NCBI GenBank assembly: GCA_049968235.1
Contig: JBMFRC010000001.1
Span: forward strand, 320,001 to 384,000
Direction: 5' to 3'
Origin: Candidatus Hydrogenedens sp.
GTDB taxonomy: Bacteria; Hydrogenedentota; Hydrogenedentia; Hydrogenedentales; Hydrogenedentaceae
Length of the DNA stretch: 64,000 nucleotides
The stretch's first letter is position 1. Each line of letters begins with the position of its first letter. The notes beneath the pieces were generated by a model. The model was not told where the DNA came from and ran no database searches. It worked only from the letters and a program-made list of their open reading frames with translations. Position numbers and translations under genes: made by a program. This document shows positions 2,178 through 23,100 of the stretch, one piece after another.

Positions 2178-3338
2178 TTACCCAAATACCTGTCGCATGC
2201 GGTCACAATAATAACAAATGTTATCCCATTTTGCATCAGGAGGAATGCGATGGTCTGGACAAGGGATAAAACCACCCAAATCTACCAGAGGTTTTAGTCG
2301 TTCTATCTCACGGTCAACAGCATCTTTATCGTAAAGGAATACTACTTTGTTCATTCCTCCGACGCCGCGTAAACCTTTGCCATATTTCTCTCTCCATGGA
2401 GCAATGCTTGCGTTCCATGTGCCGACCTCTATTGGAAACATGGTATTCACACCATTACGGAACCATGTTGGAATAAGGGCATCAATACAGCCATCACAAT
2501 CCAGTGAAACAATATCCAGACCATAACTGCTACATAATTCTGTAATTCTTTTATAATGAGGTCCAACCAATTCATCAAATACAGAAGGAATTACCAGCGG
2601 TCCGTTCTTAAAGCAGATGTCCTCCCAGAAATGAGCGAAATCGTATCGGGCTCCGTTCTGTAAGGCTCGTTTTGTATTCTGATAGCAAAGTTCTCCATAA
2701 GTATTAATCATCTCCTTAAACAAATCCGGGTCATCGGCATAAATATAACTTAATCCTACTACACCGGTAATATTTCGTAACGAACCTAATAAACTTCCAC
2801 AATGCAATCCATAAAGATAATCCCGTTCATTTTTTTTGAGAAATTCCTCTCCTCCTTCTCCAAAAGGTATCATTTTATCATTGACACGAACCGGCGTTTT
2901 CAGTATCCTGTCTTCATTATATTGAAGTCTTGGCAAATAATACTCTTCCCAATCCTTTCGTGCTTTCAATAGGTGGTCAAACTCTGCTGGAATAGAAACA
3001 GCCCCCGGTTTTTCAAGGACAATAACACCATCTTCGCTTTGAATCTTTCTTGAACCATCCGGCAATTCTTCAATAGTTTTTCGCTCAAATAATGGTGCTA
3101 AATGGGCATTAGGTTTAAATACTGAATAATAATTGAAATCAAAACCTAACTTTTCACTTATTACTGCATCCACAGGATTTCCATCCACCCATTCTTTCGC
3201 TTCTTCCTTTGTAATATATCCTTCTTCTGCCCATTTTGTTAATGTCTCATTCCAAAAACCAAAATGAACTATCGGTAAACGGTCATACAGTTCATATCTC
3301 AAAACCGCAAGTGTTCTTTCCCTATGTGTCATTAACAT
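2178..3338 (-). CDS. Uroporphyrinogen decarboxylase (URO-D) family protein (MtaA/CmuA-like fold; function unknown)
   Basis: 386-aa ORF. Its N-terminus MTHRERTLAVL..DRLPI and overall length/composition are typical of URO-D-like family proteins. Assignment is by recollection only, not a search. Confidence 0.5.
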   Translation of the reverse strand: MLMTHRERTLAVLRYELYDRLPIVHFGFWNETLTKWAEEGYITKEEAKEWVDGNPVDAVISEKLGFDFNYYSVFKPNAHLAPLFERKTIEELPDGSRKIQSEDGVIVLEKPGAVSIPAEFDHLLKARKDWEEYYLPRLQYNEDRILKTPVRVNDKMIPFGEGGEEFLKKNERDYLYGLHCGSLLGSLRNITGVVGLSYIYADDPDLFKEMINTYGELCYQNTKRALQNGARYDFAHFWEDICFKNGPLVIPSVFDELVGPHYKRITELCSSYGLDIVSLDCDGCIDALIPTWFRNGVNTMFPIEVGTWNASIAPWREKYGKGLRGVGGMNKVVFLYDKDAVDREIERLKPLVDLGGFIPCPDHRIPPDAKWDNICYYCDRMRQVFG

Positions 3339-3592: not shown

Positions 3593-4624
3593 TTGAAAAA
3601 AAAGTTTTTATCTGAAATAATTATTTGTTTTTGTTTTTTACTCTTATCTCTTTCTACATATGGAGATGCATTAAAGTCTGTAACTATCCGTTTTCCTGCT
3701 ATGGGAACGGAGTTTGTATTTATTATCTATCCCCCCTCCGAAGGCATGCTTGAAGAAGATATCCGCAATTTATGTGAACCTGCTATAAATGCTGTTTATA
3801 ATCTTGAGAAGCATATCAGTCATTACTTACCTGATAATGACCTTGCACGGTTAAACCAATCGGCAGGTTCAGGTATGCTTAAAGTAAACAGTGACCTTTT
3901 TGAGGTTATCCGCTGGTCTAAACGATATTGGGAACGCACAGGTGGTGCCTTTGACCCGAGTGTGGGTCCTTTGCTGGACCTATGGGGATTTTATAGAAAA
4001 AATCGAGAGGACCTTCCTTCGGATAAAGAAATTTCTGAAGCATTAAAGAAAGTAGGTATGGATAAAGTAATTATAAATGGAGACGAACAATCTGTTGGAC
4101 TAACAGTTCCCGGGATGCGTCTTGATTTTGGCGGAATAGGAAAAGGATTGGCATTAGACCGAGCAAAAACGATATTAAAAGGACAGGGAATACAATCGGG
4201 CATATTGCATTCCGGAACAAGTTCGATTGTAGCCATTGGGACACCCCCCAACCAGACAGGTTGGAAAATAGGTATCCGTTCGCCTTATAATAAAAGTGAA
4301 ACGATTGAAGAATTTATAATTAATGATGAATCACTTTCTACATCTTCCGTTTCTGAACAGTTTTTGGAACGAAAAGGCAAAAAGTTTGGTCATATATTTA
4401 ACCCGAAAACAGGTTACCCTGTAGATAATAGTATTGTGAGTGCCACAGTTATTTGCAAAACTGCAGTTGAAAGTGATGCTTTAAGCACATCGTTTTTTGT
4501 ACTTGGTATTGATAAAACACAGGAATATTGTAAAAAATTTCAGGATGTGAAAGTTTTTCTGGTATCCGAAAGTAATAAAAAATTAGATAAACAATACATA
4601 AACCTTAAACAAAGCGAGGAATAG
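3593..4624 (+). CDS. apbE: FAD:protein FMN transferase (ApbE family), secreted/lipoprotein
   Basis: Signal peptide. ApbE hallmark DFGGIGKGLALDRA. TTG start per ORF table. First gene of a tight operon, 3-nt gap to the next gene. Confidence 0.85.
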   Translation: MKKKFLSEIIICFCFLLLSLSTYGDALKSVTIRFPAMGTEFVFIIYPPSEGMLEEDIRNLCEPAINAVYNLEKHISHYLPDNDLARLNQSAGSGMLKVNSDLFEVIRWSKRYWERTGGAFDPSVGPLLDLWGFYRKNREDLPSDKEISEALKKVGMDKVIINGDEQSVGLTVPGMRLDFGGIGKGLALDRAKTILKGQGIQSGILHSGTSSIVAIGTPPNQTGWKIGIRSPYNKSETIEEFIINDESLSTSSVSEQFLERKGKKFGHIFNPKTGYPVDNSIVSATVICKTAVESDALSTSFFVLGIDKTQEYCKKFQDVKVFLVSESNKKLDKQYINLKQSEE

Positions 4625-4626
4625 CC

Positions 4627-6084
4627 ATGAAATCCAATGTCTCTCGTAGAAATTTTATCAAAACAGCAAGCACTGCCACAGGACTTATGGTAATGGCAGG
4701 AAAAGCCCCATTCTCCTATGCACTCAACGACAAAGTAAAGGTCGGTTGTGTGGGTTGTGGAGGACAGGGAAGTTTTCATATTAAAGATGGATTGATGGGT
4801 ACTTCTGATATTGTCATCACTGCGGTATGTGATGCGTATGGTCCCCATCAACGGTTAGCGGTGCAATTAGCCCAGATTTCAAATGCAGGTATTGCCCTTG
4901 AACCCGGACAGGGTCTAACCGAAGAACAACGGCAAAAGGCTCTGGCTGCATTCAAACCGAAGAGTTATTATGATTACCGTGAAATGTTAGAAAAAGAAGA
5001 ACTGGATGCAGTTGTAATTTCCACGCCACTCCATACACACTATCAAATAACTATGGATAGTTTGAGTGCCGGTAAATATGTCTTTTGTGAAAAGACTATG
5101 TGCTATGAGATTGAACAAGCACGAGACATCGTAAAGAAATGTCACGAAACAGGTAAATGGGTTCAGGTAGGACATCAACGGAGATACAATCCTTTATATA
5201 ACAAAGCCTTGATGATGATTTGGGAGGAGGGGACTATTGGTCGTATTGTTCATATTGATGCTCAATGGCACCGCAATAATGATTGGCGACGTCCGATTAA
5301 CAAAGACCATAAACTCAACTCTCAAGAAGCACGCTTCATTAAAGATTTAGAGCGATATATGAACTGGCGATTGTATAAAGAATCCTCCCGAGGCTTATTA
5401 ACAGAATTAGCAACGCACCAATTGGACATTGTTGCATGGTTCCTCGATGCTATGCCCAAACGGGTTCATGGTTGCGGTAGTCTGGATTACTGGAGAGACG
5501 GACGCGAAATTCACGATAGCATTAATATGATTTATGAATTTGATATAACCCCTGAAAATCGTGGCTACCGTGCTATTAATGCTCGCAGTAGTTATCAGGA
5601 TAAAAAGGCAATCAATCAACCTTACACAGTTCAATTAGCCTATTCCAGTATCACTGCTAATGCAAAGAAAGGATGTAATGAATTAATACAAGGTGATGAA
5701 GGGACTATTGAATTGAGTGAAGAGGGCGGAAGTTTCTATCCGGAAGCAACATCCAAAGTTTCCTGGGGCGAGTCCGGTAGTGCAGAACAAACCGCAACAG
5801 TCATCACTTCTGGTGGAACCTTAAAACTGAGTAATAAAGCCCTTCAAGAAGGCAAACCGATTGTTGTAGATAATACGCGTTCTGTTGACCAACTTCAATT
5901 TATGCGTTTTGCAAAAGATATTAAAGAAGGTGGCATTCCAAAGGCGAATCAGATGGTCGGATTACGTGCTACAATTATGGCTCTTGCAGGTTATCAGGCC
6001 ATAGAGGAAAAACGCATGGTTGAAATAGACCCGGCTCTCTACACCTTTGACTTCCCGACTCCCGACCCATCAACGGTTAGTTAA
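4627..6084 (+). CDS. Gfo/Idh/MocA family oxidoreductase with twin-arginine (TAT) signal peptide (periplasmic dehydrogenase)
   Basis: SRRNFIKTAS TAT motif. Rossmann motif KVGCVGCGGQGSFH. 485 aa. Confidence 0.85.
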   Translation: MKSNVSRRNFIKTASTATGLMVMAGKAPFSYALNDKVKVGCVGCGGQGSFHIKDGLMGTSDIVITAVCDAYGPHQRLAVQLAQISNAGIALEPGQGLTEEQRQKALAAFKPKSYYDYREMLEKEELDAVVISTPLHTHYQITMDSLSAGKYVFCEKTMCYEIEQARDIVKKCHETGKWVQVGHQRRYNPLYNKALMMIWEEGTIGRIVHIDAQWHRNNDWRRPINKDHKLNSQEARFIKDLERYMNWRLYKESSRGLLTELATHQLDIVAWFLDAMPKRVHGCGSLDYWRDGREIHDSINMIYEFDITPENRGYRAINARSSYQDKKAINQPYTVQLAYSSITANAKKGCNELIQGDEGTIELSEEGGSFYPEATSKVSWGESGSAEQTATVITSGGTLKLSNKALQEGKPIVVDNTRSVDQLQFMRFAKDIKEGGIPKANQMVGLRATIMALAGYQAIEEKRMVEIDPALYTFDFPTPDPSTVS

Positions 6085-6154: not shown

Positions 6155-9100
6155 ATGAGTAAATCGTGGAGAAGATGTATTTCATTATTAGTTTTCACTT
6201 TGGGTTTTCTGCCATTCCTTTCTATTTCAGCAAAGGAGACAACAGAACCATTACAAAACATTATAGAAAATTATGATAAATATATAGGCAGAGACCTTGT
6301 AATTAATAATCGTGCTCCCAACGCAAAAGTCATTCGCACACTACCTCTCTCATGCCCTCCTTTCCATTTAAGGGATAAAAATGGGGATATTATTGACCCG
6401 ACAAAAAATGCGGATGGGACACCCATTGACCCCAACCTGCCGGTTCAACAGCAAGGAATTCCCAGAGCGGTAAGCACAAAACAGACATGTGGAGCATGTC
6501 ATCCTTATGACAGGATTACTCATGGTTATCATTTTCAGATGGGTCGTGATGAACTTTATCCAGATACAGACCCGAGTAGTGGCGTTCCTAAAGATAAAAG
6601 TCCCGGGTTTTTCGGGAAATGGCTCTCTCTATATCAACGGGAATTGGTAGGAAAACATTTTGAAAATCCTGAACAGGTAGATATGACTCCTTTTGACTGG
6701 ATTGTAAATTGTGGAGTATGTCATCCCGGTGGTGGACCTGCTGAATATGACCGTTCCGGTAAAAATTATGCAACGGTGAAAAAAACAAGTCCATTAGCAG
6801 GTTCTTTTGGGGATGGAGATTACCACGAATCCCCATGGGAAAAAACAGGGGTTATTGAAGCGGATTGTTTCATTTGTCACCTTGAAGATTATGAATATTC
6901 CCTTCGTGCTCAACAGATAAAAAAATGGAACTTCGAATATGCAGCAACTGCGGGTGCTGGCTTTGGTTTCGTTTGGGGCTCAACCATTGATGGACAAGAG
7001 CCCAAAGTTTACTATAACAAAAGCCTTTTCCGTGCAGATGGAACAGTGCACCTACACATTCGCCGTCCAACAGACCGTCAATGTATGTTCTGCCATGATA
7101 TGTCCAGTGTTCAGAAACGTGGAATTTCATGGCACTCTCCATATATGCAGGATGTTCACACAGAACAAGGTCTGAAATGTATTGATTGCCACCATGGTGA
7201 TATCCGCCACAATTTTGCAAAAGGAGATTCTTCTATACAAACAGTTCGCGATGATTTGGATAATACAATTTTATCCTGTAAAAAATGTCATTACCAACAG
7301 GAAAAAGGCGCCCCGTACCCCGAACATAAAGGATTACCTCCTTTACATCTGGAACGGATAGATTGTACAGCGTGCCATATAACGCATCGTCCATTCTTGC
7401 CTGTATCTATTATTGACCCATTAACAGGCAAAGCCATAACTTTACCGGAAATCCAGGATATGAATTATTGGGGAGCCTTTGAATTCGGCGGTTTTTGGGG
7501 TTGGTCGCGAAGTAGAGACGATGCAAATCTTATATTTCCTTATACCGAAGACCAATTAAAGCAGGCTAAGGAATATATTATTTCTAATGAAGACAATATT
7601 CGCAAAATGTTCAAAGAAGCATTTTTGACAGACCTGCCCGAAGGGAATATTAAAGTCGCCGATTTCATCCAGCAAAAACAGGGACTTGAAAATTCAGAAG
7701 CCCGTGGATTAATGCTGATTACATTATCCCAATTAGTCCGTCCTGCAAAAGAAGCATTCCCGGTTGTTGTTTTCCGAAATCAAGCATACTCCTACGATGC
7801 CGGGCAAATACGGGAATTAAAAACAACACCACAACCGAAACGACCCGGTGCTACTATTATCGAATCTTCTTTTGATTTAGGTAGAAGTAAACCTGATGGA
7901 AAAATCTATGCTCAGAATACTCAGGTTTCCGCATATTGGGTTTATACTGATGGGGAGGAGGTTCGTCCTGTATTGCTTAAAGACATGAAGAAGGCTTACG
8001 ACTGGTTAACATCACAAGAATATAGTTTCTCTCTTTATTCCGCACAGCCTCAGAATGGACAGACTTCTCCTGCACTTCCGGAAAATCCATTCAAACAGGC
8101 ACAACAGACAACTACAACCTCATCGGAAAATACCGGAGCATTACAATCGCAAACATCTCCTCCCTCAGATACAGCAGAACGTAAAAAGACAGCGGAAGAA
8201 GTTCGTCAAATAGCAGAGATGGAAGAAAACCTAAAATCTGCTATACAGAAAAAAATAAAGGTATATTCCACATCGGACACTCGACCATTAAAAATTTATG
8301 ACGATAACAATGATACCTTCCCCGAAGTAAATTCTCAGGAAGAAATCGGCTTGTTCGCATGGGCACTTAAACAGACTGTTCCATCGCTACGCGAAAAAGA
8401 TTTATATTACTTGAGAGGAACCACTGTTTTTCGTGTTAGTGTTAAAGGCGGAGAAAATCCTTATGACCGTGAGTTTTTAGATATGGACCGTATTGGTGAG
8501 AATAAACCTTTCATAGCCATTACGAGATACGAACAGAAAGAAGAATCCGGTGAATATAGTTGGGACAAACCGAAACAAGTTTGGAAACCTGTCGAAATAC
8601 GACTTTGTTCGCCGTATGAAGCAGAGATTGTGCAAGTTGACCCGAAGGCATATCCATCTATTATCGCTATGGCAAAACCATTAGAATGGACTGTCTCTCA
8701 TGGTGTAGAACCTGCAAGCCGTGCATACGGTGCTAAAGGTTGTACAGAGTGCCATTCAGAAAATTCTTCATTCTTCATGGGTAGTATGCTCGTAGACCCA
8801 TTTTCTGAAAACGGGACGCCCAAATATGTTCCCCTATGGCATATCTTGGGCTACGATATTTCCAACTTGAAAATAGGAGCATGGCGCGAAGGTGTATTGA
8901 AAAAATATGCCCCATGGATTGTGCTCATACAATTATTACTCATTCTTGTACACTATGTCCTTATCGGGAGAAAAGAAGGAACACCTGTTGGGAAACCTAA
9001 TGTCCTTCGTTTCCGTTTTTATGAACGAATAGCCCATGCGATTGCCATGATTAGTGTTACATTCCTGGCTATTACGGGTTTCTTCTTCCTTATGGGTCAA

Positions 9101-9601
9101 CATGACCCCTTAGGACCCTGGGCAAGGGTGTGGCATACATGGTTTGGTTATGTCGCATGTGCGGGTGTTGTATTTATCTTCTTATCCTGGGTAGCCTTCA
9201 TGTTCCCTGCTAAAGGGGATTTCCGTTGGTTATTGAAAGCAGGCGGTTATTTAGGTGGTGTTAAAGGACATGTTCCAGCGGGCAAATTTAATGCCGGGCA
9301 AAAAATCCTATTCTGGTTAGCAATACTTGCATCAGGGACCTGTGGAATAACAGGTGTTGTTATGGGACTTAATCGTGGTTTTCACTTCCCAAATCAAGAA
9401 ATATTCTATACGATACACGATATATCTGCACTGGTTATGATTCTGGTACTCATTGCTCATATTTATTTAGCCGCCTTTGTTGTCCCTCACAGTTTGCGGG
9501 CTATTTTCGGAGGAAAGGTAAGCGATATATGGGCAAAAGAACACCATTCACTCTGGGCTTTTACAGTAATTGATGAAAAAAACAATTCATCTGAACATTA
9601 A
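6155..9601 (+). CDS. Octaheme c-type cytochrome fused to a C-terminal dihaem cytochrome b (Ni/Fe-hydrogenase/FdnI-type cyt b) membrane domain; CbcL-like quinone-interacting electron conduit
   Basis: Signal peptide. Eight CxxCH motifs (CGACH, CGVCH, CFICH, CMFCH, CIDCH, CKKCH, CTACH, CTECH). S/T/Q-rich linker. C-terminal ~260 aa has 5 TM helices with His in TM1 (AHAIAM), TM2 (WHTWF) and two in TM4 (IHDIS..AHIYL), the classic bis-haem b ligation pattern. Confidence 0.8.
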   Translation: MSKSWRRCISLLVFTLGFLPFLSISAKETTEPLQNIIENYDKYIGRDLVINNRAPNAKVIRTLPLSCPPFHLRDKNGDIIDPTKNADGTPIDPNLPVQQQGIPRAVSTKQTCGACHPYDRITHGYHFQMGRDELYPDTDPSSGVPKDKSPGFFGKWLSLYQRELVGKHFENPEQVDMTPFDWIVNCGVCHPGGGPAEYDRSGKNYATVKKTSPLAGSFGDGDYHESPWEKTGVIEADCFICHLEDYEYSLRAQQIKKWNFEYAATAGAGFGFVWGSTIDGQEPKVYYNKSLFRADGTVHLHIRRPTDRQCMFCHDMSSVQKRGISWHSPYMQDVHTEQGLKCIDCHHGDIRHNFAKGDSSIQTVRDDLDNTILSCKKCHYQQEKGAPYPEHKGLPPLHLERIDCTACHITHRPFLPVSIIDPLTGKAITLPEIQDMNYWGAFEFGGFWGWSRSRDDANLIFPYTEDQLKQAKEYIISNEDNIRKMFKEAFLTDLPEGNIKVADFIQQKQGLENSEARGLMLITLSQLVRPAKEAFPVVVFRNQAYSYDAGQIRELKTTPQPKRPGATIIESSFDLGRSKPDGKIYAQNTQVSAYWVYTDGEEVRPVLLKDMKKAYDWLTSQEYSFSLYSAQPQNGQTSPALPENPFKQAQQTTTTSSENTGALQSQTSPPSDTAERKKTAEEVRQIAEMEENLKSAIQKKIKVYSTSDTRPLKIYDDNNDTFPEVNSQEEIGLFAWALKQTVPSLREKDLYYLRGTTVFRVSVKGGENPYDREFLDMDRIGENKPFIAITRYEQKEESGEYSWDKPKQVWKPVEIRLCSPYEAEIVQVDPKAYPSIIAMAKPLEWTVSHGVEPASRAYGAKGCTECHSENSSFFMGSMLVDPFSENGTPKYVPLWHILGYDISNLKIGAWREGVLKKYAPWIVLIQLLLILVHYVLIGRKEGTPVGKPNVLRFRFYERIAHAIAMISVTFLAITGFFFLMGQHDPLGPWARVWHTWFGYVACAGVVFIFLSWVAFMFPAKGDFRWLLKAGGYLGGVKGHVPAGKFNAGQKILFWLAILASGTCGITGVVMGLNRGFHFPNQEIFYTIHDISALVMILVLIAHIYLAAFVVPHSLRAIFGGKVSDIWAKEHHSLWAFTVIDEKNNSSEH

Positions 9602-9659: not shown

Positions 9660-10226
9660 ATGAAAATCCTGTCTTTATTGGGAAGCCCTAAAAAAAATGG
9701 GAACTCCGCACATGCATTGAACTATCTCGAAGAACAACTGAAACAACAGAACCATGAAATAAAACATATCCATGTCTCTTCCTTCCTTATTGAAGGGTGT
9801 AGGGAATGTTATTGGTGTAAACAGGAGGGGAATTTTTTGTGTTGCAATAACGATGATGCAATACCTATCTTAAAAGGAATGCTTGATTCAGATGCTATTA
9901 TCTTTTCTGCACCGACCTTTTGTTGGGGTTTTCCCGCACAAATGAAAGCCCTTTTCGACCGCATGTTCTGCCTGATTTCATGGAAAGAAGGAGATAGTGA
10001 AAATAAATCTTTGCTGAAAGGGAAAACTATGGCACTCATTGTAACTGCAGGGGGTGAAGTGAAAAATAATGCAGAACTTTTAGGAATTGCCTTCAACAAT
10101 ATGGCAGAATTTATGAATTGTAAATCTGCAGGGATAGTTTATATTGCCCCCTGCGAAGGTATTCATTCTATCAATGATAAGATAAAAAAACAATTAGACA
10201 ACTTAGCCCAAAATCTGAGTATCTAA
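9660..10226 (+). CDS. Flavodoxin-like fold NAD(P)H-dependent FMN reductase / iron-sulfur flavoprotein-like protein
   Basis: LLGSPKKNGNS N-terminus typical of the NADPH-dependent FMN reductase / multimeric flavodoxin fold. Cys cluster CRECYWC...CC. Last gene of the operon. Confidence 0.55.
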   Translation: MKILSLLGSPKKNGNSAHALNYLEEQLKQQNHEIKHIHVSSFLIEGCRECYWCKQEGNFLCCNNDDAIPILKGMLDSDAIIFSAPTFCWGFPAQMKALFDRMFCLISWKEGDSENKSLLKGKTMALIVTAGGEVKNNAELLGIAFNNMAEFMNCKSAGIVYIAPCEGIHSINDKIKKQLDNLAQNLSI

Positions 10227-10523: not shown

Positions 10524-11759
10524 TTATCTTTCGTTAGAATTATTCTTCAGGATTCCCCTTACCTTGCTATTTTGTGTCAATAACAAGAAGGAAAGAATTA
10601 CTAAAACAAATATATCACTCAGATGTGAATTTGTTGAAGGTCCACCGGAACCGCAAGATACAATGAAAGTTCTCTTGGCTCCTTTACTCATTACCAGTAT
10701 AACCTCTGTCCCCTTAACAACTTCAGTTCCAACAGAGGGCTCGGTTCGGATTATGCTCCCTTTCGGTACATCTTTGCTATATTCTTCTTTAATCGTTGCG
10801 GATACCTTAAGTCCTGCAGATGTTAGTATTTGAATAGCCTCGTCTTTAGATTTTCCTTTAACATCCGGCACTTTTACTTTCTGAATAGGTTCTCCTTCAT
10901 TACTTCCTTCGGGAGTACCTTCAACTACACCTTCAGGGGTTCCTTCTGGACTACCTTCCTGATGACCTTCGACTGTTCCTTCGCCTTCTGCATTCCCTTC
11001 GACAGAACCTTCTGTGCTTCCTTCTATACTACCCTCTTGCATACCTTCAGGAATGCCTTCTGTTGAACCTTCTTGTGCTCCTTCTCCTTCGAGAGTGCCT
11101 TCTATTATACCTTCTTGCTGTCCTTCGGTGATTCCTTCAACATTTCCTTCGCCTTCTGCAGGCGGTTCTAATGGAAGTATTTTAGGTGCTTTCGGGTCAT
11201 CAAACATGGGAACATAAGCAAATATATCGTTGATTTGGACTTGAGCCAAATTTATTTGTGCATCCCCGGTTTGTTTCATACGGAACAATACTTTGAGCAA
11301 TTCAAGACTTCCCTTAGCACCGATATTTTCAGAACTGCTTCCTGCAATTTTCAGACTACCTGTAGCATTTGCATTAGAGTTATAACTTAACTTCATATTG
11401 CTAACTGCATCACCTAATACGACCTCCATTACCTCCGCATATTCTTTATCGAAATTAATTACAAGAGAGAAGCCCGCTATATTGGATACATTGTTCATTA
11501 CCACAGATACCCACTTTTCAGAGCCTGCTGTTCCAGATAAGTAATCTGTTAATTGGGCATAAACAGTTGCATCCTCTTTTTCTACTCGTGCAAGGGTAGA
11601 CTCCGCAGACAAAGAACCTGCATCTGCCAGCCATTTTAAGTCGCTTATATAGTCTTCATAACTCTTTGCGTCTATTTTCTTTCCTGTTGGCATTACATCT
11701 TTACCTGTTAACCAGCGTTGTAGCATGCTGGAGTCAGCACTATCCACCATTCCATCCAT
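10524..11759 (-). CDS. C-terminal fragment of a disrupted giant surface protein: dockerin-like start, cohesin-like domain, xEGxxEG acidic repeat, PASTA domain, C-terminal Gly/Ser-rich + hydrophobic + basic tail
   Basis: ORF begins inside a dockerin repeat (GDFNMDGMVDSADSSMLQRWL continues upstream in another frame). Homologous to 11846-14179 and to the intact 20173-25416 protein. Tail SCGSGGP...FVLVILSFLLL...KVRG. Confidence 0.55.
   Translation of the reverse strand: MDGMVDSADSSMLQRWLTGKDVMPTGKKIDAKSYEDYISDLKWLADAGSLSAESTLARVEKEDATVYAQLTDYLSGTAGSEKWVSVVMNNVSNIAGFSLVINFDKEYAEVMEVVLGDAVSNMKLSYNSNANATGSLKIAGSSSENIGAKGSLELLKVLFRMKQTGDAQINLAQVQINDIFAYVPMFDDPKAPKILPLEPPAEGEGNVEGITEGQQEGIIEGTLEGEGAQEGSTEGIPEGMQEGSIEGSTEGSVEGNAEGEGTVEGHQEGSPEGTPEGVVEGTPEGSNEGEPIQKVKVPDVKGKSKDEAIQILTSAGLKVSATIKEEYSKDVPKGSIIRTEPSVGTEVVKGTEVILVMSKGAKRTFIVSCGSGGPSTNSHLSDIFVLVILSFLLLTQNSKVRGILKNNSNER
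10870..11170 (-). repeat. Imperfect 12-nt-periodic coding tandem repeat (nnnnccttc on the + strand) encoding xEGxxEG acidic linker
   Basis: Visible periodicity of ccttc every 12 nt. Protein EGNVEGITEGQQEGIIEGTLEGEGAQEGSTEG... Similar tracts at 12955-13135, 13558-13700 and 20335-20445. Confidence 0.7.
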
Positions 11760-11845: not shown

Positions 11846-14179
11846 TTACTTCATATTATTATCCGCATCACCAAAGACACATCCGTCTGTAACACACAAT
11901 TGTCCATCTTCTAATATAAGTTCTAACGGTTGTGTAAATGAGGAGATCACATCGTATAGGCGAACTCCATTGCCGGCTCCATCATCCGGAATAAGGTGTA
12001 ACTGTCCACATAAAGGACCTAAAACAGATAAATTGGGTTTAGCAATAATATTAAACAGAGTCCCAGCACCATACAAACTTTCTGCTTTTATTCCTGCTGC
12101 AGCAATTCGAACATTAATTGTCTCACCTTGAGGTATAGCTAATGATGCTATCATCATCCCACTAGTAATACCTGATGGTAATACGGTGATAGTCTCGGGG
12201 TCTGATATTAAGGCAGATGGCAATTCCGAATCAATCTGTATGGATGTTGCTGAAACATCATAAACTGATTTTGAGTTCACGGGAATACGAATAAGTATTT
12301 CATCAAGATTTTGTGGATTCGGTTGTAGCCAATAAAGACTGGTATCTGTTATATTAACCTGTTCAGGGAAGAATACGGTTAAGTATTGTCCACGAACCGT
12401 CTCCGAAGCATCTGATAACACAGTATAACGGTCCACATCACTTACAGCCTGTATGGCATATTGGTAGTAAATCCCTAATTCTACCGCATTATCTATATAT
12501 TCTAATGTTGTTAGATAACCTTCATAAGGCAACCTGTCCGGATTATTCAATCGTTGCCAATCTGTCAATGAATTCCCATCTCTATCTACTGTCCTGCGAT
12601 ACACATTATAGCCAGCAATATTATACTCAGGATTTGTATCCCATGCTACGCGAACACTATGCGGTCCACTATAAGGACGTGGACGGAATGATTTTTGAAT
12701 ATTTCCGGGGTCTAATTCAACAAGCAATTCAGCATTGGTATCCACAGGTTGTATCGTTTTGGGCTTATATTTCCGCTTTGTAAAGTCCAAACGATATGGC
12801 GGTTGCAATGTACCTAAATCTGGAAAGGCAAAACGTCCATTATTATCTGTTAGCACAGGTTCATTCCCTTTACTATCTGCAACGCTAATTTGGACTAATA
12901 CACCGGGAATCGGGCTTTTGCTTATACTATTTATCACCTGACCACGAACACCTGCATATTCGCCTTCGAATGTCCCTTCCGTAGTTCCTTCAATAGTTCC
13001 CTCCGGAATTCCTTCAATTACTCCTTCAGGTATTCCTTCAACATTACCATCCATAGGACCTTCGGGAATCCCTTCGATAACACCTTCAATTGTTCCTTCC
13101 GTTACACCTTCAGGTGTCCCTTCTTCACAGGGTCCTGTGGAAACCCAGATATCCACAGGTATTTCTATTGTATTCTCATAATTACAAGTGCCTTCTACAG
13201 CCATAGGTTCTTGCAAAGCGATGTATCCAGCGGGATAATTATTATCACATACCTCAACAATCTGTCCTAATAATAATCCATAATCTACAATTAATTGTTG
13301 TGCCTCTTCCAATGACATACCTATAACATTAGGAACTATGGTACAGGGTCCACAAGAGATAATCAGGTCAACGATTGTTCCAATCTCTACTGTATTTCCA
13401 CCACCGGGTATTTGTTCAACGACTGTGCCTGCCGGGTATTGGTCATTGCACATCTCAATAATAGCACCAATATTTAGGTTGGCATTACTAATTTCTCCCG
13501 TTGCTTCCTGTTGCGGAAGTCCTATCATATATGGAACTATAGTTGTTTCAATAGCACCTTCGCCTTCAGACATCCCTTCGCCTTCAGACATCCCTTCGCC
13601 TTCGAATAGCCCTTCTGAACTGCCTTCAATACTACCTTCGGTAGTTCCTTCAAATGAACCTTCTCCTTCTACAATACCTTCAACTACACCGGGTTCAGGC
13701 TCTCCAATAACAGGATTGAGTGGGTCTTCAAATCTTGGGGTATGTCCATATTTATCGTGTATCTGAACCTGAACAAATTTAATATCGCCTTTTCCATCTC
13801 GCTTAATCTTAAACTTTACTTTTACCAATTCAACTTCTCCAGAGGTTCCCAACTCTTCTTCACCTCCCGCACTTATCCGCAAACTGCTACTGGAACCAGA
13901 ATTTACTACTTCATAATTCCATCGCCATATATTTGCTGCATTCACAGGTTTTACCTGCTTTACTTCAGCAAAATCACTATCATAATTCAAGACAAATTCA
14001 AATCCTGCCACATTTGTTACTTCATCAGCCACAATGGCAATCCATTTATCACTGCCTGCAGACCCTTCTAATGTGCCACGGAACCACACCTTTACTCCCA
14101 CATTATTCTTTTCTAATTTGGCTAACTTTGCTTGTGCGGATAGGGAACCATGGGAAGCTAACCATTTCAATTCATCCAC
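11846..14179 (-). CDS. Central fragment of the disrupted giant surface protein: cohesin-like, EG repeats, 2 PASTA-like, EG repeats, carboxypeptidase-regulatory-like, FN3, dockerin start
   Basis: 777-aa ORF. Its frame stays open upstream of the annotated Met into a dockerin repeat, interrupted only by an in-frame TGA at 14270-14272. The C-terminal GDADNNMK* continues as a dockerin after a frameshift near 11840. Confidence 0.55.
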   Translation of the reverse strand: MDELKWLASHGSLSAQAKLAKLEKNNVGVKVWFRGTLEGSAGSDKWIAIVADEVTNVAGFEFVLNYDSDFAEVKQVKPVNAANIWRWNYEVVNSGSSSSLRISAGGEEELGTSGEVELVKVKFKIKRDGKGDIKFVQVQIHDKYGHTPRFEDPLNPVIGEPEPGVVEGIVEGEGSFEGTTEGSIEGSSEGLFEGEGMSEGEGMSEGEGAIETTIVPYMIGLPQQEATGEISNANLNIGAIIEMCNDQYPAGTVVEQIPGGGNTVEIGTIVDLIISCGPCTIVPNVIGMSLEEAQQLIVDYGLLLGQIVEVCDNNYPAGYIALQEPMAVEGTCNYENTIEIPVDIWVSTGPCEEGTPEGVTEGTIEGVIEGIPEGPMDGNVEGIPEGVIEGIPEGTIEGTTEGTFEGEYAGVRGQVINSISKSPIPGVLVQISVADSKGNEPVLTDNNGRFAFPDLGTLQPPYRLDFTKRKYKPKTIQPVDTNAELLVELDPGNIQKSFRPRPYSGPHSVRVAWDTNPEYNIAGYNVYRRTVDRDGNSLTDWQRLNNPDRLPYEGYLTTLEYIDNAVELGIYYQYAIQAVSDVDRYTVLSDASETVRGQYLTVFFPEQVNITDTSLYWLQPNPQNLDEILIRIPVNSKSVYDVSATSIQIDSELPSALISDPETITVLPSGITSGMMIASLAIPQGETINVRIAAAGIKAESLYGAGTLFNIIAKPNLSVLGPLCGQLHLIPDDGAGNGVRLYDVISSFTQPLELILEDGQLCVTDGCVFGDADNNMK

Positions 14180-17925: not shown

Positions 17926-20184
17926 ATGCATTTCTGGCTGATTAATGACAATGTTTTATTAAAATCTTCCCGTGCAGACATCGGTGGAAAAGGCTGGGGG
18001 CTGGTTCGATTAAAATTACAGGGATTAAATGTGCCACCTTTCGGAATAATCAGCACAGAAGGTGTGAAATATAAACTCTGGAAAACCGATACAGATTTTC
18101 AAAATGCAATAATGGCATGGTGTAAAGAGATATGGGATTGTTCCATAAGTAAGAAAGTAATCGTCCGCTCATCTGCATGTGAGGAAGACCATCAACATCA
18201 TTCTTTTGCAGGAAAGTTTTTAACAGAGGTTATAACAAAGCCAGAAGAACTTGTTCCAACACTGGACAGGATAGCCAAACATTATGCTTTAACTATAAAA
18301 ATGGATACGGGGAATTTTTCTGAAGGTCCCCATGGACTTGCAATTATTCTCCAGGAGTTTGTCAGTGGTGAAATCTCCGGCGTATGCTTTTCGACCCGAC
18401 CTATGAATGCAAATCCTCAACAAGTATATTGTGAAGTAGTAAATGGTGAAAATAAGTTGTTGGTTGATGGGGAAATACAACCCACTCGGATACTTTTTTA
18501 TCCCTCCACCGCAGAATTGATAGATTTTCAGGAAGGTTCTAATGGACCTGAATCAATACCTGAAGAATTATTAATAGAATTATCTCATGGGCTAATGAAG
18601 ATGGAATGGGATTACCGCACTGCAGTGGATATGGAATGGACATGGAATGGTAACAAGGTATGGTTTTTACAGATTCGCCCAATTACAAAGGTAACTCCTT
18701 CCCATAATTTATATCCAAAGGAATGTGCTACTTGCTGGTTTTTTGACCAACGTTTTATTGAACCGATTACAACTATTACCCAAACCACACTTATTCCGTT
18801 AATCCTGAGAAAGGCAATCACAGAGGGACTTAACATGCGACGAAAAAATACCCCCATTGAACCGTATTACTTTGGGGGTCAGGTGTATATCCCCCATCGG
18901 GCTTACTTCGATTTACTGGAGGGTTGTCCTAAATGGTGGCTTTCCTCCGATTTAAAACTGTTATTCCCTAATAACTGTGGTTGCCCGCATAAAAAAAAGA
19001 ACTTCCTGGGAATAGAATTCTGGCTGGATGCTTTTCGTTCATTGTTAAAACACTGGCGTGATGCTATTTTTGTGTTATGTCGCTGGGGACAATGGAAGAA
19101 GGATTTATCAAAGAAATTAAGTCTGTGGAATAAGGAGGATTTGTCAGAGATTACAACAGATGAATGGGTAACGCAATGGGAGCAATGCCAGAGATTATCC
19201 GAAGAATTTTTAGAAATACATCGCTGGGCAATACTCTGGTCCAGTTATGTATATCGTTTAGGGGGAAAGTATATCGTTCGTGGTAAGGAAAGACAGTATC
19301 CCTCTATTACGACACGGGCAAATCACATATTGACATCTTATTTATTCACCCGTGACATAAAATTATTAGCCCTCCTTCGCACTGAATATTCACACCGCAC
19401 AGAAAGTCTCGATTTTATATCTCCTCGATGGGGAGAATGGCTTTCCGGTGAGGAACAAAATGAATTGTTTAAAACGCAATTATTAGAGGAGAGGAAAGAT
19501 ATTCCATTAACATCACTGCAAACAAGGGAAAAAGCAGGTATTCTGTATCGTATTTTCGCAAAGTTTATACATCTGCGTGAGGAACAACGATTTGAATGGG
19601 AAAAAATATTAAATGTACAGAAAAAATTATTAAAGGAAGCAGGTAAACGATTGGTAGAAAAAGGTATCTTGATGGAGATAAATCAGGTCTGGTTTATAAG
19701 CGGGCTGGAATTAATGGAAGCACTTATAAAGGATAAGCCAATTAATCTAAAAGAAGTTTTGCTACGCCAACATCAATGGTGCGTTGAACATATATTTACA
19801 AAACCATTATTTATCAACGAAGGTGGTTTCATACTATCTACTTCCGAAAAAGATAAAGATACATGGTCAGGCTGGGGTGTGTCCGAAGGAAGAGTAAAAG
19901 GGACTGCCTATGTGAGCAGTAATCCGACTTCACTCCCATCCAATATCGCACATCCTCGTATTCTTGTAACACCTTGTTTAAATCCCGGACAGACATGGTG
20001 TCTGCAATACTGGGACGGTGTTCTATTGGAACGAGGCAGTGAACTGTCTCATCCTGCTATCATTGCACGGGAGATGAATATCCCCATGATTGCGAATTTA
20101 CCTGAGATTACACATAAACTAAACACGGGCGATTTAATTTATATAGATGCAACTTATGGTAAAGTTAGCCGTTTAAAATCTTAA
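17926..20184 (+). CDS. PEP-utilizing enzyme family protein (PEP synthase / pyruvate phosphate dikinase-like; PPDK_N ATP-grasp-like N-domain + phosphohistidine mobile domain)
   Basis: N-terminal GGKGWGLVRL resembles the PEP/pyruvate-binding N-domain. C-terminal mobile domain with SHPAIIAREMNIP (phospho-His motif). 752 aa. Confidence 0.65.
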   Translation: MHFWLINDNVLLKSSRADIGGKGWGLVRLKLQGLNVPPFGIISTEGVKYKLWKTDTDFQNAIMAWCKEIWDCSISKKVIVRSSACEEDHQHHSFAGKFLTEVITKPEELVPTLDRIAKHYALTIKMDTGNFSEGPHGLAIILQEFVSGEISGVCFSTRPMNANPQQVYCEVVNGENKLLVDGEIQPTRILFYPSTAELIDFQEGSNGPESIPEELLIELSHGLMKMEWDYRTAVDMEWTWNGNKVWFLQIRPITKVTPSHNLYPKECATCWFFDQRFIEPITTITQTTLIPLILRKAITEGLNMRRKNTPIEPYYFGGQVYIPHRAYFDLLEGCPKWWLSSDLKLLFPNNCGCPHKKKNFLGIEFWLDAFRSLLKHWRDAIFVLCRWGQWKKDLSKKLSLWNKEDLSEITTDEWVTQWEQCQRLSEEFLEIHRWAILWSSYVYRLGGKYIVRGKERQYPSITTRANHILTSYLFTRDIKLLALLRTEYSHRTESLDFISPRWGEWLSGEEQNELFKTQLLEERKDIPLTSLQTREKAGILYRIFAKFIHLREEQRFEWEKILNVQKKLLKEAGKRLVEKGILMEINQVWFISGLELMEALIKDKPINLKEVLLRQHQWCVEHIFTKPLFINEGGFILSTSEKDKDTWSGWGVSEGRVKGTAYVSSNPTSLPSNIAHPRILVTPCLNPGQTWCLQYWDGVLLERGSELSHPAIIAREMNIPMIANLPEITHKLNTGDLIYIDATYGKVSRLKS

Positions 20185-23100
20185 GTTCGAAAGGTCTGAC
20201 TTGTCCAACGGGTGTTCTCTCCTTCGCATACCACTCATAGCAAGTAATAACATGCCCATCAACACAAAATCCAATAGATATTTTAACCAATTGTCTCCAT
20301 CCCTGGATTTATGATTACACCCACAAATTCCAGTATTTTGCCCCTCTCCTTCCCCTTCTCGAGTGCCCTCAACATTCCCTTCCACTATTCCTTCCGGATT
20401 ACCTTCTTGAGTTCCTTCCAGAGTTCCTTCACTAACTACTATACCTGCTTCTGCTTTATCAATATATCCATCCTTATTGGTATCAGCACTATCAAAAGTA
20501 TCTCGGGACAGGGTGGAATATCGTGCCACTGCTTCTTCATAGGAAACTTTCCCATCCTTATTCGTATCCACCAAATCAAAATTTGTTTTTAGGTCATTTA
20601 TGAATTGCTCTACCCCGGTTATGGTAATAGAAGCACCTTTTGCATTAATTACTCCATACCAACTCAGGTCATCTCCAAATTCCCCCTTTATTTTTACTTC
20701 GCGTATTTGAATGTTTATTTTCTTTGATGTCATCGTTGTGGGTTTAAACTTTATTTGTATAATTCGTCCTTTTTCTTTTGTTGTAATGGGTTTTTCGCTA
20801 CTTATTGAAACTTTCAAATAACCCTCACCGACTTCTGTATCCTTCTTAAAGTTGCTGGCAATATCTGCCATGTTTAATCCGTAGAAATTTATACCTTCAT
20901 CATAGGTTAAGAGCAAATCCATTCCCGCAACACCTAATAATGAACTTAATTCTATACCTGTGCGATATTCATTGTTTGAGTCCGGTGTTAGGTTATCTAC
21001 AACAATTTCCACCGTACGATTATTTTCCGTTTCTAACAAGGCTTTTTCCCCAATCACGGTTGAACTCGGATTGATTGGAAGCCCTGCCAATTTACGCAGT
21101 AGTAACGACACATCCGCACAATCTAAAATTCCATCTCCATTAAAATCACCTCTCCGTTTATCACATTCCAAATCAACAATACCTGCTTTGCGAACAATCT
21201 TGCGCAGGAACACAATCGTATCAGACATACCAATGTAACCATCAGTATCCATATCTCCATAGATGCAACGACTACTAATACAATTCGTATCTGGGTTTTC
21301 TTCCAATACATTGAGTTGTCCATGAACCAATTCTACTGGCAATTCCTTCTGCTGGGTATCTTTAATAATAACCTTCTGCAATTTCAGGTCTGTATCCTGA
21401 GCACAACTTCCTGCCACTGTATTCTGTCGCACACGAAAAACCATATCAAAGAGGTGTCCTTCTCCATAAAGCACTTTCTTCTCATTATCAACTCTGGGTC
21501 CCGCATGGAATTTTATAACACCCTGTGTACGGGTATCCGAAACAACCTCAAGATTTCGTGTTACAACCGTTTTTTGAACCTCTACAAGTTCAAGCACTGT
21601 GTTGTTGTAACTCACATTAATATCAATCGTATAGGGTTCCAATCCCCGTACACTGTTTATATTTATCGGTATCTGAATTGTATCCCCACTTCCTTCTGGT
21701 ATCCAATCGATTGTAGGTATCCATACACGTAGCTTACCCGGTTCTGCTTTGACAGGCTCTGTAGGGTCGCTTTGTTGTTGATTGGTAGCAATAGCAATCA
21801 AACGATAATACCATGCCCGAGAGGTATCCACTTCGTTATCTGTGTAATTTGTACCTGTAATAATATTTGAGGAAACAGTAATCCACGGTCCGTTTCGTGT
21901 TTCGCTTCGTTCTAATTGGTATCCTGCAAGATTTCGCTCCACATTAGGCTCCCAGATAAGATAAACATGGTCTATCCCTGAAAAAACCTGCAATCCATGA
22001 GGGGTTGAAATCTTTGTCCCAGCAGGGTCAGGACCATTACTTACAATTAACTCAACCGTTGTTCCGTTCAATACGGAACTTCCTCCAACAGGAGATTGTC
22101 CCATTACAACATTTTGTGAAACGGTATCGCTATACTGCATTACTGTACGGGTCAGCAAACCCGTAGATTGGATTTGCCCTATTGCAGAAGTTATATTCTG
22201 CCCAATAACATCCGGTACCGTGATATATGTGTTTCCAGAACATTGTCCTGTTGAAACCCAAATTGTAACTTCCGCACCTCGATTTACTCCACTATAAGCA
22301 ATTGGTGATTGGCGTATTACCTGCCCCATGGCAACATAATTGTTACATTCCCGTTCCACCTTAACATGCAAATCCGCTATCTGTATTGCCTCATTCGCCT
22401 GCTGTTCGCTTCTCCCTACAACATCTGGAACCAATACACCCGGACATAATCCACTGGATACAGTTAACTGAATATAGGTTCGTGATGAAATTACATCTCC
22501 CGATGATGGGATTTGACTCAGGACATTTCCCTGTGCCACTGTGTTACTACAGTTATAAGTCGTACGGATTCTATTCAGTCCTACACCTTCAAGAGTGTTT
22601 TTTGCTTGTTGTTCTGTCATACCGACCACCCCCGGAATAGTTACGAAGATTTCTCCTTCTCCTGTTCCTTCGCCCTCTCCCTCTCCTATAAGGTCTACAA
22701 TCCATTTAAGTAATGGATAATCTGTCCCTTCATTTGCAACCCATATATTAACAAAATCCCAATCGTTGTATGTTGCTTGCTTATACATTTCTATTGTGGT
22801 TTTTCCTGTTCCACCATCGGAAAACGATGTCCCGGCAGATTGCACATCCCAATAACTGGACACTACTGTTCCTCCATCGTTATACCCAACAAGCCCACCA
22901 ACATATAGTTTCCCCGTAACATTGGCACTGCTATAACAATTACGAATATTTGTTTCAAAAGAATTCTCAGTATTCATTTGGTACCCAACCAATCCACCGA
23001 TAAACGAATTTCCGCCAACAAAGGAATCATAAACAAAACTATCTGTTATATTGCCACCATAATTTATCCCTACAAAACCACCCACTCCATAATCAGCTGT

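Follow-up and report, generated by a model that had tools for sequence, protein, structure and literature searches.

An octahaem cytochrome c fused to an FdnI-type dihaem cytochrome b and encoded with ApbE and a Gfo/Idh/MocA dehydrogenase in Candidatus Hydrogenedens: a possible link between the periplasm and the quinone pool

Gene organization of the locus

A stretch of 64,000 nucleotides (nt) from Candidatus Hydrogenedens sp. (contig JBMFRC010000001.1, positions 320,001 to 384,000; here called the window) was found to encode a large cytochrome in which a periplasmic multihaem c-type region and a dihaem b-type membrane domain are joined in one polypeptide. Its gene is the third of a triad on one strand, preceded by genes for an ApbE-family transferase of flavin mononucleotide (FMN) and for a Gfo/Idh/MocA dehydrogenase (here called Gfo) which carries a twin-arginine translocation (TAT) signal (Table 1). 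The gaps within the triad are 3 nt (ApbE to Gfo) and 70 nt (Gfo to cytochrome). The conservation of these partners suggests a previously undescribed route by which electrons from outside the cell reach the quinone pool. A scan for operon promoters and terminators gave counts which were not meaningfully different from those of shuffled sequences, with no terminator detected between the genes.

Table 1. Features of the cytochrome locus in the window (aa, amino acids; TM, transmembrane; AF2, AlphaFold2; pLDDT, predicted local distance difference test; pTM, predicted template modelling score; OTR, octahaem tetrathionate reductase).
Feature	Position	Strand	Evidence or details
ApbE-family FAD:protein FMN transferase, N-terminal signal/anchor (periplasmic), first of triad	3593..4624	+	Pfam ApbE, E 4.7e-75
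TAT-exported Gfo/Idh/MocA dehydrogenase (485 aa)	4627..6084	+	Pfam GFO_IDH_MocA and C-terminal domains; TIGR01409 TAT signal (SRRNFIK)
V-I-T-S-G-G-T (aa 392-398), ApbE flavinylation-like motif, predicted FMN site Thr398	5800..5820	+	
Octahaem c / dihaem b fusion protein	6155..9601	+	1148 aa; AF2 model pLDDT 89.9, pTM 0.84
Sec-type signal peptide (aa 1-26)	6155..6232	+	hydrophobic aa 6-24, then SISA, cleavage, KE
N-terminal seven-haem module, OTR-like fold	6233..7399	+	CxxCH at 6488-6502, 6710-6724, 6866-6880, 7082-7096, 7178-7192, 7277-7291, 7364-7378
Haem-free alpha/beta domain (aa 416-848), inserted between haems 7 and 8	7400..8698	+	
S/T/Q-rich low-complexity loop (aa ~640-680) within haem-free domain	8072..8194	+	
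Acidic motif DDNNDtfPEvNsqEE (aa 716-730)	8300..8344	+	conservation
Membrane-proximal eighth haem: His849 and CTECH (CxxCH 8741-8755)	8699..8899	+	~50 residues before TM0
TM0 (aa 917-939), extra helix, periplasm to cytoplasm	8903..8971	+	hydropathy; one long helix aa 902-937 in model
FdnI-type four-helix dihaem cytochrome b	9002..9565	+	ligands His961 (9035-9037), His994 (9134-9136), His1088 (9416-9418), His1102 (9458-9460)
FNAGQK motif in b domain	9287-9304	+	part of family consensus
FMN_red/flavodoxin-fold protein, CxxCxxCx7CC, without signal peptide	9660..10226	+	Pfam FMN_red, E 5e-24

Architecture of the fusion protein

The cytochrome is encoded by a single uninterrupted frame of 1148 codons, with a Shine-Dalgarno-like (ribosome-binding-site-like) AGAGAAAG located 7 nt 5' of the ATG at 6155. 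Hydropathy and the AF2 model both indicate a signal peptide and five TM helices, with a periplasmic span of ~890 residues. Eight CxxCH motifs were identified in the product (residues 112, 186, 238, 310, 342, 375, 404, and 863), taking up 16 of its 21 cysteines; in 20,000 residue shuffles the number of such motifs never exceeded one. The cytochrome gene is genuine and its product is a real membrane protein. The original prediction, which was made from the sequence alone, had described one polypeptide combining a periplasmic multihaem cytochrome c with a dihaem cytochrome b of the FdnI/HydC superfamily; this was borne out by the intact frame and by collinear orthologues. The five C-terminal TM helices and the agreement of the histidine positions with the cytochrome b family were likewise confirmed, and the comparison with the Ni_hydr_CYTB hidden Markov model (HMM) that it had proposed gave a match; the values are given below.

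A protein search returned 500 relatives, and a scan of one genome per species gave at least 425. The first ~67 of the 500 are full-length (1000–1237 aa, 37–93% identity) and belong mostly to metagenome-assembled genomes of Candidatus Hydrogenedentes/Hydrogenedentota (NCBI, JGI, ENA, and Logan). The motif order common to them is six or seven CxxCH, a long gap, one CxxCH and the b domain, with haem 1 or 2 lost in some members of the query clade. Short forms of 720–950 aa are found in many phyla and have ~180–215 residues between haems 7 and 8, and insertions specific to the query clade occur at ~425–570, 621–710, and 770–840.

Membrane domain

The b domain scored above the curated cut-offs of PF01292 (Ni_hydr_CYTB; 68.7 vs. 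30.1 bits) and TIGR01583 (128.5 vs. 115.85 bits). Its fold matches the solved structure of Escherichia coli FdnI, which was also the sole match when the full cytochrome model was compared with PDB using Foldseek. By residue mapping, His961, His994, His1088, and His1102 align with FdnI His18, His57, His155, and His169, and these four positions are 90–100% conserved in an alignment of 89 sequences. Three further residues, Asn1046, Gly1048, and Gln1049, map onto FdnI Asn110, Gly112, and Gln113. In the FdnI structure (Jormakka et al., 2002; 1KQF) the four histidines are reported to be the haem ligands and the other three residues to lie in the pocket for menaquinone and 2-heptyl-4-hydroxyquinoline N-oxide (HQNO). 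Positive-inside loops, together with the helices of the model, would place the corresponding pocket of the window protein on the cytoplasmic side.

The four FdnI-like helices are preceded by an additional one, TM0, which brings the chain to the cytoplasm and lets them retain the topology of FdnI. His933 (nt 8951-8953), near the cytoplasmic end of TM0 and thus level with haem bC and the quinone pocket, is found in 100% of the long forms and in 93% of the short ones. By analogy, TM0 appears to be topologically equivalent to the C-terminal TM helix of FdnH.

Periplasmic region

The first seven CxxCH motifs are packed within ~300 residues, and a gap of 455 residues separates the seventh from the eighth. 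The number of motifs given in the original prediction is thus correct, while the even spread that it implied is not, with seven falling in residues 112–408 and the eighth at 863. Nor does the S/T/Q-rich tract form the linker between the c and b parts, as had been supposed: it is a variable loop of low pLDDT (<50 at aa 656-667) within the haem-free domain, which is itself conserved, ~240 residues before TM0. This loop falls in the second of the clade-specific insertions, is gapped in 40–80% of long-form homologues and is absent in short forms. The haem-free domain as a whole (~450 aa) was found to have no Pfam family and no structural neighbor. Within it, residues D716, D717, D720, E724, N726, and E730 of the acidic motif are at least 90% conserved in long and short forms alike, with the consensus DDNxDxxPExN(T/S)xxE, and a possible cation site is suggested by this pattern.

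At the eighth haem, H849, C863, C866, and H867 are invariant in the 89 sequences, and its position makes contact with haem bP likely. The same alignment has only six invariant histidines outside the motifs (126, 335, 352, 391, 398, and 849) for eight c haems. Cys67 (nt 6353-6355), which is part of a CPPF motif 5' of haem 1, is nearly invariant.

With eight CxxCH haems in an OTR-like fold, the c part fits best the description of an octahaem cytochrome of the OTR type in which a large insertion precedes haem 8. The OTR of Shewanella oneidensis (PDB 1SP3) differs in being a soluble protein of 436 residues that has neither this insertion nor a membrane domain. Since OTR acts as an enzyme (Mowat et al., 2004; Atkinson et al., 2007, both as cited in PMC8840924), the c part may contain a catalytic haem. 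No match to OTR was found at the level of sequence. Profile and single-sequence searches of PDB returned only a ~55-residue haem-packing match to NrfA, and matches of the c part to sequence models were sub-threshold or very local (NapC/NirT, cytochrome c7, MmcA, and 55 residues of NrfA). Membership of the NapC/NirT, MmcA, and MtrC/DmsE-type families was rejected (PF03264, 23.3 bits vs. 24.1; TIGR04314, 45.5 vs. 250), and PF22113 (19.3 vs. 30) and TIGR03508 (18.1 vs. 192) also remained below their thresholds.

Conserved gene module

The genomic context was surveyed at 84 loci that encode a relative of the cytochrome. All 16 query-clade loci with upstream DNA have the genes in the order ApbE, Gfo, cytochrome, including one (L019) in which the cytochrome is an 850-aa form without the large insertions and one (L018) in which the triad has two Gfo genes. 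At the 66 loci of shorter relatives, BLAST and HMM searches found no ApbE-Gfo pair. Neither molybdopterin nor 4Fe-4S genes were found in the module, in the window or the 16 related loci, and the same regions have no other multihaem, porin, conduit or outer-membrane genes nearby.

Six of six Gfo paralogues (~50% identity) have ApbE immediately upstream; at their loci the third gene is not a cytochrome but encodes a membrane-anchored YceI-like protein. Because these loci keep ApbE and Gfo together with YceI, the ApbE-Gfo pair is regarded as the invariant unit, to which either a cytochrome or a YceI protein is added as the third gene. The paralogous modules (L085:6905-10376; L086:4955-8482; L087:3587-8380; L088:3948-7756; L089:3752-9108; L090:1232-6461) have one or two copies of the TAT-Gfo/Idh/MocA gene, often with a DeoC-family gene divergently upstream. 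Their YceI-like partners consist of a TM anchor, an acidic/Ala-Pro linker and the YceI domain, with no haem motif.

In three loci (L087:3587-6004; L009:4058-6517; L019:3828-6185) ApbE is fused in one open reading frame to an N-terminal membrane transporter domain of the Nramp family; the L087 gene encodes 805 aa (PF01566 and PF02424). Such a fusion may serve the supply of metal to ApbE or the transport of flavin.

Only the closest relatives (L001, L005, and L008) have the FMN_red gene downstream of the cytochrome, the more distant triads being without it; it is possibly co-transcribed, though outside the conserved core. Its product is cytoplasmic and has a compact cysteine motif, CRECYWCx7CC, which we take to be reminiscent of iron-sulfur flavoproteins.

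Flavinylation

The ApbE protein of the window matched ApbE/FmnB structures in PDB with E-values to 6.9e-42. Its Tyr78 aligns with Tyr60 of E. coli ApbE, which tells transferases binding flavin adenine dinucleotide (FAD) from FAD pyrophosphatases (PMC4767422). ApbE is reported to recognize the motif D-x-x-[S/T]-G-A-[S/T] and to place FMN on its last residue; losing the Asp matters little, while changes to the Gly or Ala reduce efficiency (PMC12052999). The V-I-T-S-G-G-T motif of Gfo fits at the Ser, the Gly and the terminal Thr, with the Asp absent and the Ala replaced by Gly. In a set of 121 Gfo homologues (47–100% identity), the Thr398 column is Ser or Thr in every sequence, Gly396 is kept in 113 and Ser/Thr395 in 103, so that the motif takes the form [T/A]-S-G-x-[T/S], and the region around it is less conserved than the protein average. 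The motif is absent from a Gfo paralogue that is not linked to ApbE. As expected of an ApbE substrate, Gfo is extracytosolic, with a TAT signal (RRxF in 117 of the 121 homologues), and ApbE is adjacent in 22 of the 22 loci examined. Gfo is therefore predicted to be the client of ApbE, with FMN on Thr398. The cytochrome and its insert were rejected as clients because the protein has no [ST]G[AG][ST] motif and its clade-specific inserts contain no Ser or Thr that is conserved, and no conserved motif was found in the YceI partners.

Gfo possesses the Rossmann GxGxxG and EKT motifs. Among solved structures it is closest to DgpA and inositol dehydrogenases, with alignment over the Rossmann part only; the NCBIfam and PDB neighbors comprise inositol, glycoside-3 and xylose dehydrogenases and DgpA, along with a match to glucose-fructose oxidoreductase (GFOR). 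In the literature open to searching, no link between ApbE and Gfo/Idh/MocA proteins was found, and none appears in the text tables of the eLife 2021 survey.

Proteins known to be flavinylated by ApbE (NqrC, RnfG, NosR, PceC, FMN_bind reductases; DUF2271/DUF3570) resemble the present case in that an extracytosolic ApbE is encoded beside a secreted redox protein with a [S/T]-G-x-[S/T] motif whose terminal Ser/Thr is invariant, and in that the flavin would mediate between an enzyme and a membrane chain. The motif of the window protein differs in lying in the C-terminal domain of a Gfo/Idh/MocA protein rather than in FMN_bind, and in having no Asp and usually Gly for Ala.

Relatives outside the query clade

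About 24 of the short-form loci are co-directional with the genes of ars-type clusters resembling those for arsenic resistance (ArsR, an ArsP (ArsP_1) permease, DsbD_2, a DGC/OsmC protein, thioredoxin, and ArsA/Acr3). The hosts are Bryobacterales, Bacteroidales, Ignavibacteria, Acidobacteriota, Phycisphaerae, and Latescibacterota, and the loci include L033, L043, L045, L046, L051, L053, L055 (501-9979), L056, L059-L062, L071 (3297-10349), L076, L081, and L084. A literature search turned up no report of ars clusters that regularly include a multihaem cytochrome.

In 15 loci, most of which are labelled as Desulfobacterota-type (deltaproteobacterial) and which include the isolate Fundidesulfovibrio agrisoli, the short-form gene is split by a single in-frame TGA (L020, L021, L022, L026, L027, L030, L031 with the TGA at 8229-8231, L040, L041, L057, L064, L066, L068, L070, and L077). 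The TGA always follows G-K/R-[FWLH] and falls between haems 1 and 2, where the window protein has residue 157; a conserved hairpin, UUUCGCC-AGUU-GGCGAAA, is located 12 nt 3' of it. Homologues without the TGA have Q, A, L, or S at this position. Of four hairpins folded, two scored better than shuffles, and no Rfam family matched the putative selenocysteine insertion sequence (SECIS) of L031. As judged from these sequence features, the TGA probably encodes selenocysteine with a bacterial SECIS, which would make these proteins selenoprotein octahaem/dihaem-b fusions. The relatives with a probable selenocysteine or in ars clusters hint that the cycling of sulfur, selenium or arsenic involves multihaem redox enzymes which are as yet unexplored.

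Proposed role of the module

It is proposed that the flavinylated dehydrogenase feeds electrons from the periplasm through the haems to a quinone, which would be reduced at the cytoplasmic face; we consider the chances that this is right and that it is wrong to be evenly balanced. The dehydrogenase would leave the cytoplasm in the folded state and with NAD(P) bound, as TAT-exported GFOR does, and ApbE would attach FMN covalently at Thr398 in the periplasm. Gfo would then oxidize a sugar-like substrate there, and the FMN would split the hydride into single electrons for the c haems. From haem 8 the electrons would pass to haem bP and then to haem bC, and (mena)quinone would be reduced on the cytoplasmic side of the membrane, as it is in Fdn-N. 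Such an Fdn-N-type redox loop would allow an oxidation outside the cell to build proton-motive force, making the module electrogenic.

The quinone is favored as the end point because N1046, G1048, and Q1049 match the FdnI pocket and FNAGQK is in the family consensus, and also because YceI, found in place of the cytochrome in the paralogous modules, is a member of a polyisoprenoid/quinone-binding family. The direction toward the quinone is favored since the level of NAD(P)H is far below that of quinones, the potential of NAD(P) being -320 mV and that of quinol about -75 mV or higher. The least certain parts of the mechanism are which way the electrons flow and what the substrate is.

Several observations weigh against this proposal. 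The Gfo motif is without the canonical Asp, has Gly or other residues at -1 and reads E-G-K-T in one orthologue, and no FMN_bind domain (PF04205) was found in Gfo, where Pfam detects GFO_IDH_MocA domains only. The c part resembles an enzyme, OTR, and has six invariant distal histidines for eight haems as well as the near-invariant Cys67. The relatives in ArsR-controlled clusters or with a probable selenocysteine point to reductase chemistry in the wider family. FdnI-type cytochromes are also reversible in principle, and relatives of CbcL and MtoC have been proposed to run both ways (PMC6295460).

The nearest known counterpart of the membrane domain is FdnI, the gamma subunit of E. coli formate dehydrogenase-N (PDB 1KQF/1KQG chain C). 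The window protein differs from it in lacking the partner genes for FdnG (molybdopterin) and FdnH (iron-sulfur); it would take periplasmic electrons through the fused octahaem cytochrome instead, and its extra N-terminal TM helix, with the conserved His, appears to hold the topological place of the FdnH anchor. Identity as a formate dehydrogenase subunit was rejected, as the neighbors are ApbE, Gfo/Idh/MocA and FMN_red genes. The name "formate dehydrogenase subunit gamma," which the homologues carry in databases, is misleading since no FdnG/FdnH genes are present.

Known periplasmic Gfo/Idh/MocA enzymes (Zymomonas GFOR; the glycoside 3-dehydrogenases BT_2158/DgpA) share TAT export, the Rossmann fold and the EK(P/T) motif with the window protein. 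GFOR and enzymes of the BT_2158/DgpA type recycle their bound nicotinamide using a second substrate, whereas the window Gfo is predicted to pass its electrons to a covalent flavin and a dedicated haem/quinone module. Periplasmic dehydrogenases of this family are very numerous in Hydrogenedentota, and numerous also in Planctomycetota, Verrucomicrobiota, and Bacteroidota. An ApbE flavin with a haem/quinone module, if true, would be a testable answer to the largely unanswered question of how these enzymes re-oxidize their tightly bound nicotinamide, and it would add a new class of client to protein flavinylation.

A broader claim is put forward tentatively, as somewhat more likely to fail than to hold: that the module represents an undescribed class of respiratory dehydrogenase in Hydrogenedentota and a few other lineages. 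This class would be defined by a TAT-exported, NAD(P)-containing Gfo protein, covalent FMN supplied by ApbE at a new type of acceptor site (ITSGGT, in the C-terminal domain of Gfo), a quinone link through either an OTR-derived octahaem/FdnI-type dihaem-b fusion with a domain of new fold or membrane-anchored YceI proteins, and an Fdn-N-like charge-separating loop fed by the oxidation of sugar-type substrates outside the cytoplasm. The ~450-residue insert, being without a structural relative, is a target for structure determination.

Alternative explanations

An unlikely alternative, though one deserving serious attention, is that the protein is an OTR-like, quinol-dependent reductase. The octahaem part would then be the catalyst, using an open or Cys/Lys-ligated haem to reduce a periplasmic chalcogen, metalloid or nitrogen oxyanion, with the flavinylated Gfo acting as a second, direct donor. 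The fold match, the missing distal histidines, Cys67, and the contexts of the relatives are all in keeping with such an enzyme. However, the position of the probable selenocysteine is Leu in the window protein, and Q, A, L, or S but never Cys in the other homologues without selenocysteine; haem 1 or 2 has been lost in some clade members; there is no sequence-level match to OTR; and the pairing of ApbE and Gfo with YceI, without a cytochrome, is left unexplained.

The original prediction saw in the protein a CbcL-like menaquinol oxidase which would draw electrons from the quinone pool and pass them to acceptors in the periplasm or outside the cell, and this is now considered improbable. CbcL of Geobacter sulfurreducens (GSU0274) has nine bis-His haems in residues 30-279, or one per 28 residues, and two b haems in its membrane domain (PMC9129911), and it has been described as working without accessory flavin or iron-sulfur subunits (bioRxiv 10.1101/2022.08.31.506072). 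The gross architecture is indeed that of the CbcL/MtrH/MtoC fusions, with an N-terminal periplasmic multihaem c region and a C-terminal dihaem b domain of the HydC/FdnI superfamily in one polypeptide, and CbcL ties quinones to periplasmic redox partners, as is proposed for the window protein. In PMC6295460 that family spans 15 phyla, 416-1034 aa, and 3-23 motifs, with Hydrogenedentes not among the phyla listed there, and the rows of its Table S2 consulted here have haem-dense c domains that run straight into the TM helices. A few of the short-form relatives also adjoin 10- to 21-haem cytochromes.

The likeness to CbcL thus holds for the c-b fusion, and membership of the family is not supported. 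CbcL has nine haems in 250 residues, which lead directly into six predicted TM helices, whereas the window protein has seven plus one haems in ~890 residues (a haem density four times lower), a ~450-aa haem-free domain and five TM helices. Unlike CbcL, which has no accessory flavoprotein, the window cytochrome has ApbE and Gfo as constant neighbors and a b domain of the FdnI type proper; that the operon partners differ from those in Geobacter had already been noted in the original prediction, and is confirmed by the ApbE and TAT-exported Gfo genes upstream. Two CbcL-type b fragments (P0249 and P0250), which are surrogates found through a garbled machine-read alignment in PMC9129911 and not CbcL itself, aligned to the b domain of the window protein with BLASTP E-values of 0.68 and 2.6 and matched PF01292 below threshold only; the b domain appears FdnI-like rather than CbcL-like. 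The strict partnership with ApbE and Gfo, together with the lack of further genes for multihaem cytochromes, porins or conduits in the window and the 16 query-clade loci, disfavors a quinol oxidase for extracellular electron transfer. Fusion of a multihaem cytochrome c to an FdnI/HydC-type cytochrome b is a class that is already known, and the window protein is a distinct variant of it which probably arose independently of CbcL. If so, fusions of the CbcL kind arose more than once, here from a b domain of the FdnI type proper and an enzyme-type octahaem cytochrome.

The module could also run in reverse, with quinol passing electrons through the b and c haems and the FMN to the bound NAD(P) of Gfo, which would then act as a terminal reductase in the periplasm, with a keto-sugar as one possible substrate; we hold little expectation that it does. 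The PDB matches of Gfo/Idh/MocA type include 1,5-anhydro-D-fructose reductase, and modules of the FdnI type are in principle reversible (PMC6295460). Against this, the step from quinol to NAD(P) is uphill by established thermodynamics, and oxidation of quinol at the cytoplasmic face would dissipate membrane potential, an argument which has also been made for CbcL (bioRxiv 10.1101/2022.08.31.506072). A frameshift or chimeric assembly joining two separate genes, an error considered in the original prediction, has a negligible chance of being the explanation and is excluded because, besides the open frame and the one confident AF2 model, the same collinear protein is found in more than 50 independent assemblies from four databases (NCBI, JGI, ENA, and Logan), to 39% identity.

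Other genes in the window

Divergently upstream of ApbE is a distantly URO-D-like gene (2178-3338, minus strand) which scored 21 bits, below the Pfam cut-off, and is conserved at 82–88% identity in L001, L005, and L008. In another locus, L002, an unrelated URO-D-family gene is located just 3' of the cytochrome. Three genes on the minus strand (10524-11759, 11846-14179, and 20173-25416) encode secreted or surface proteins of very large size in which long tracts of acidic (E-G-x-x-E-G)n repeats occur. The one of 1746 aa combines GLUG motifs and seven PASTA domains with a cohesin domain and EF-hand-like motifs.

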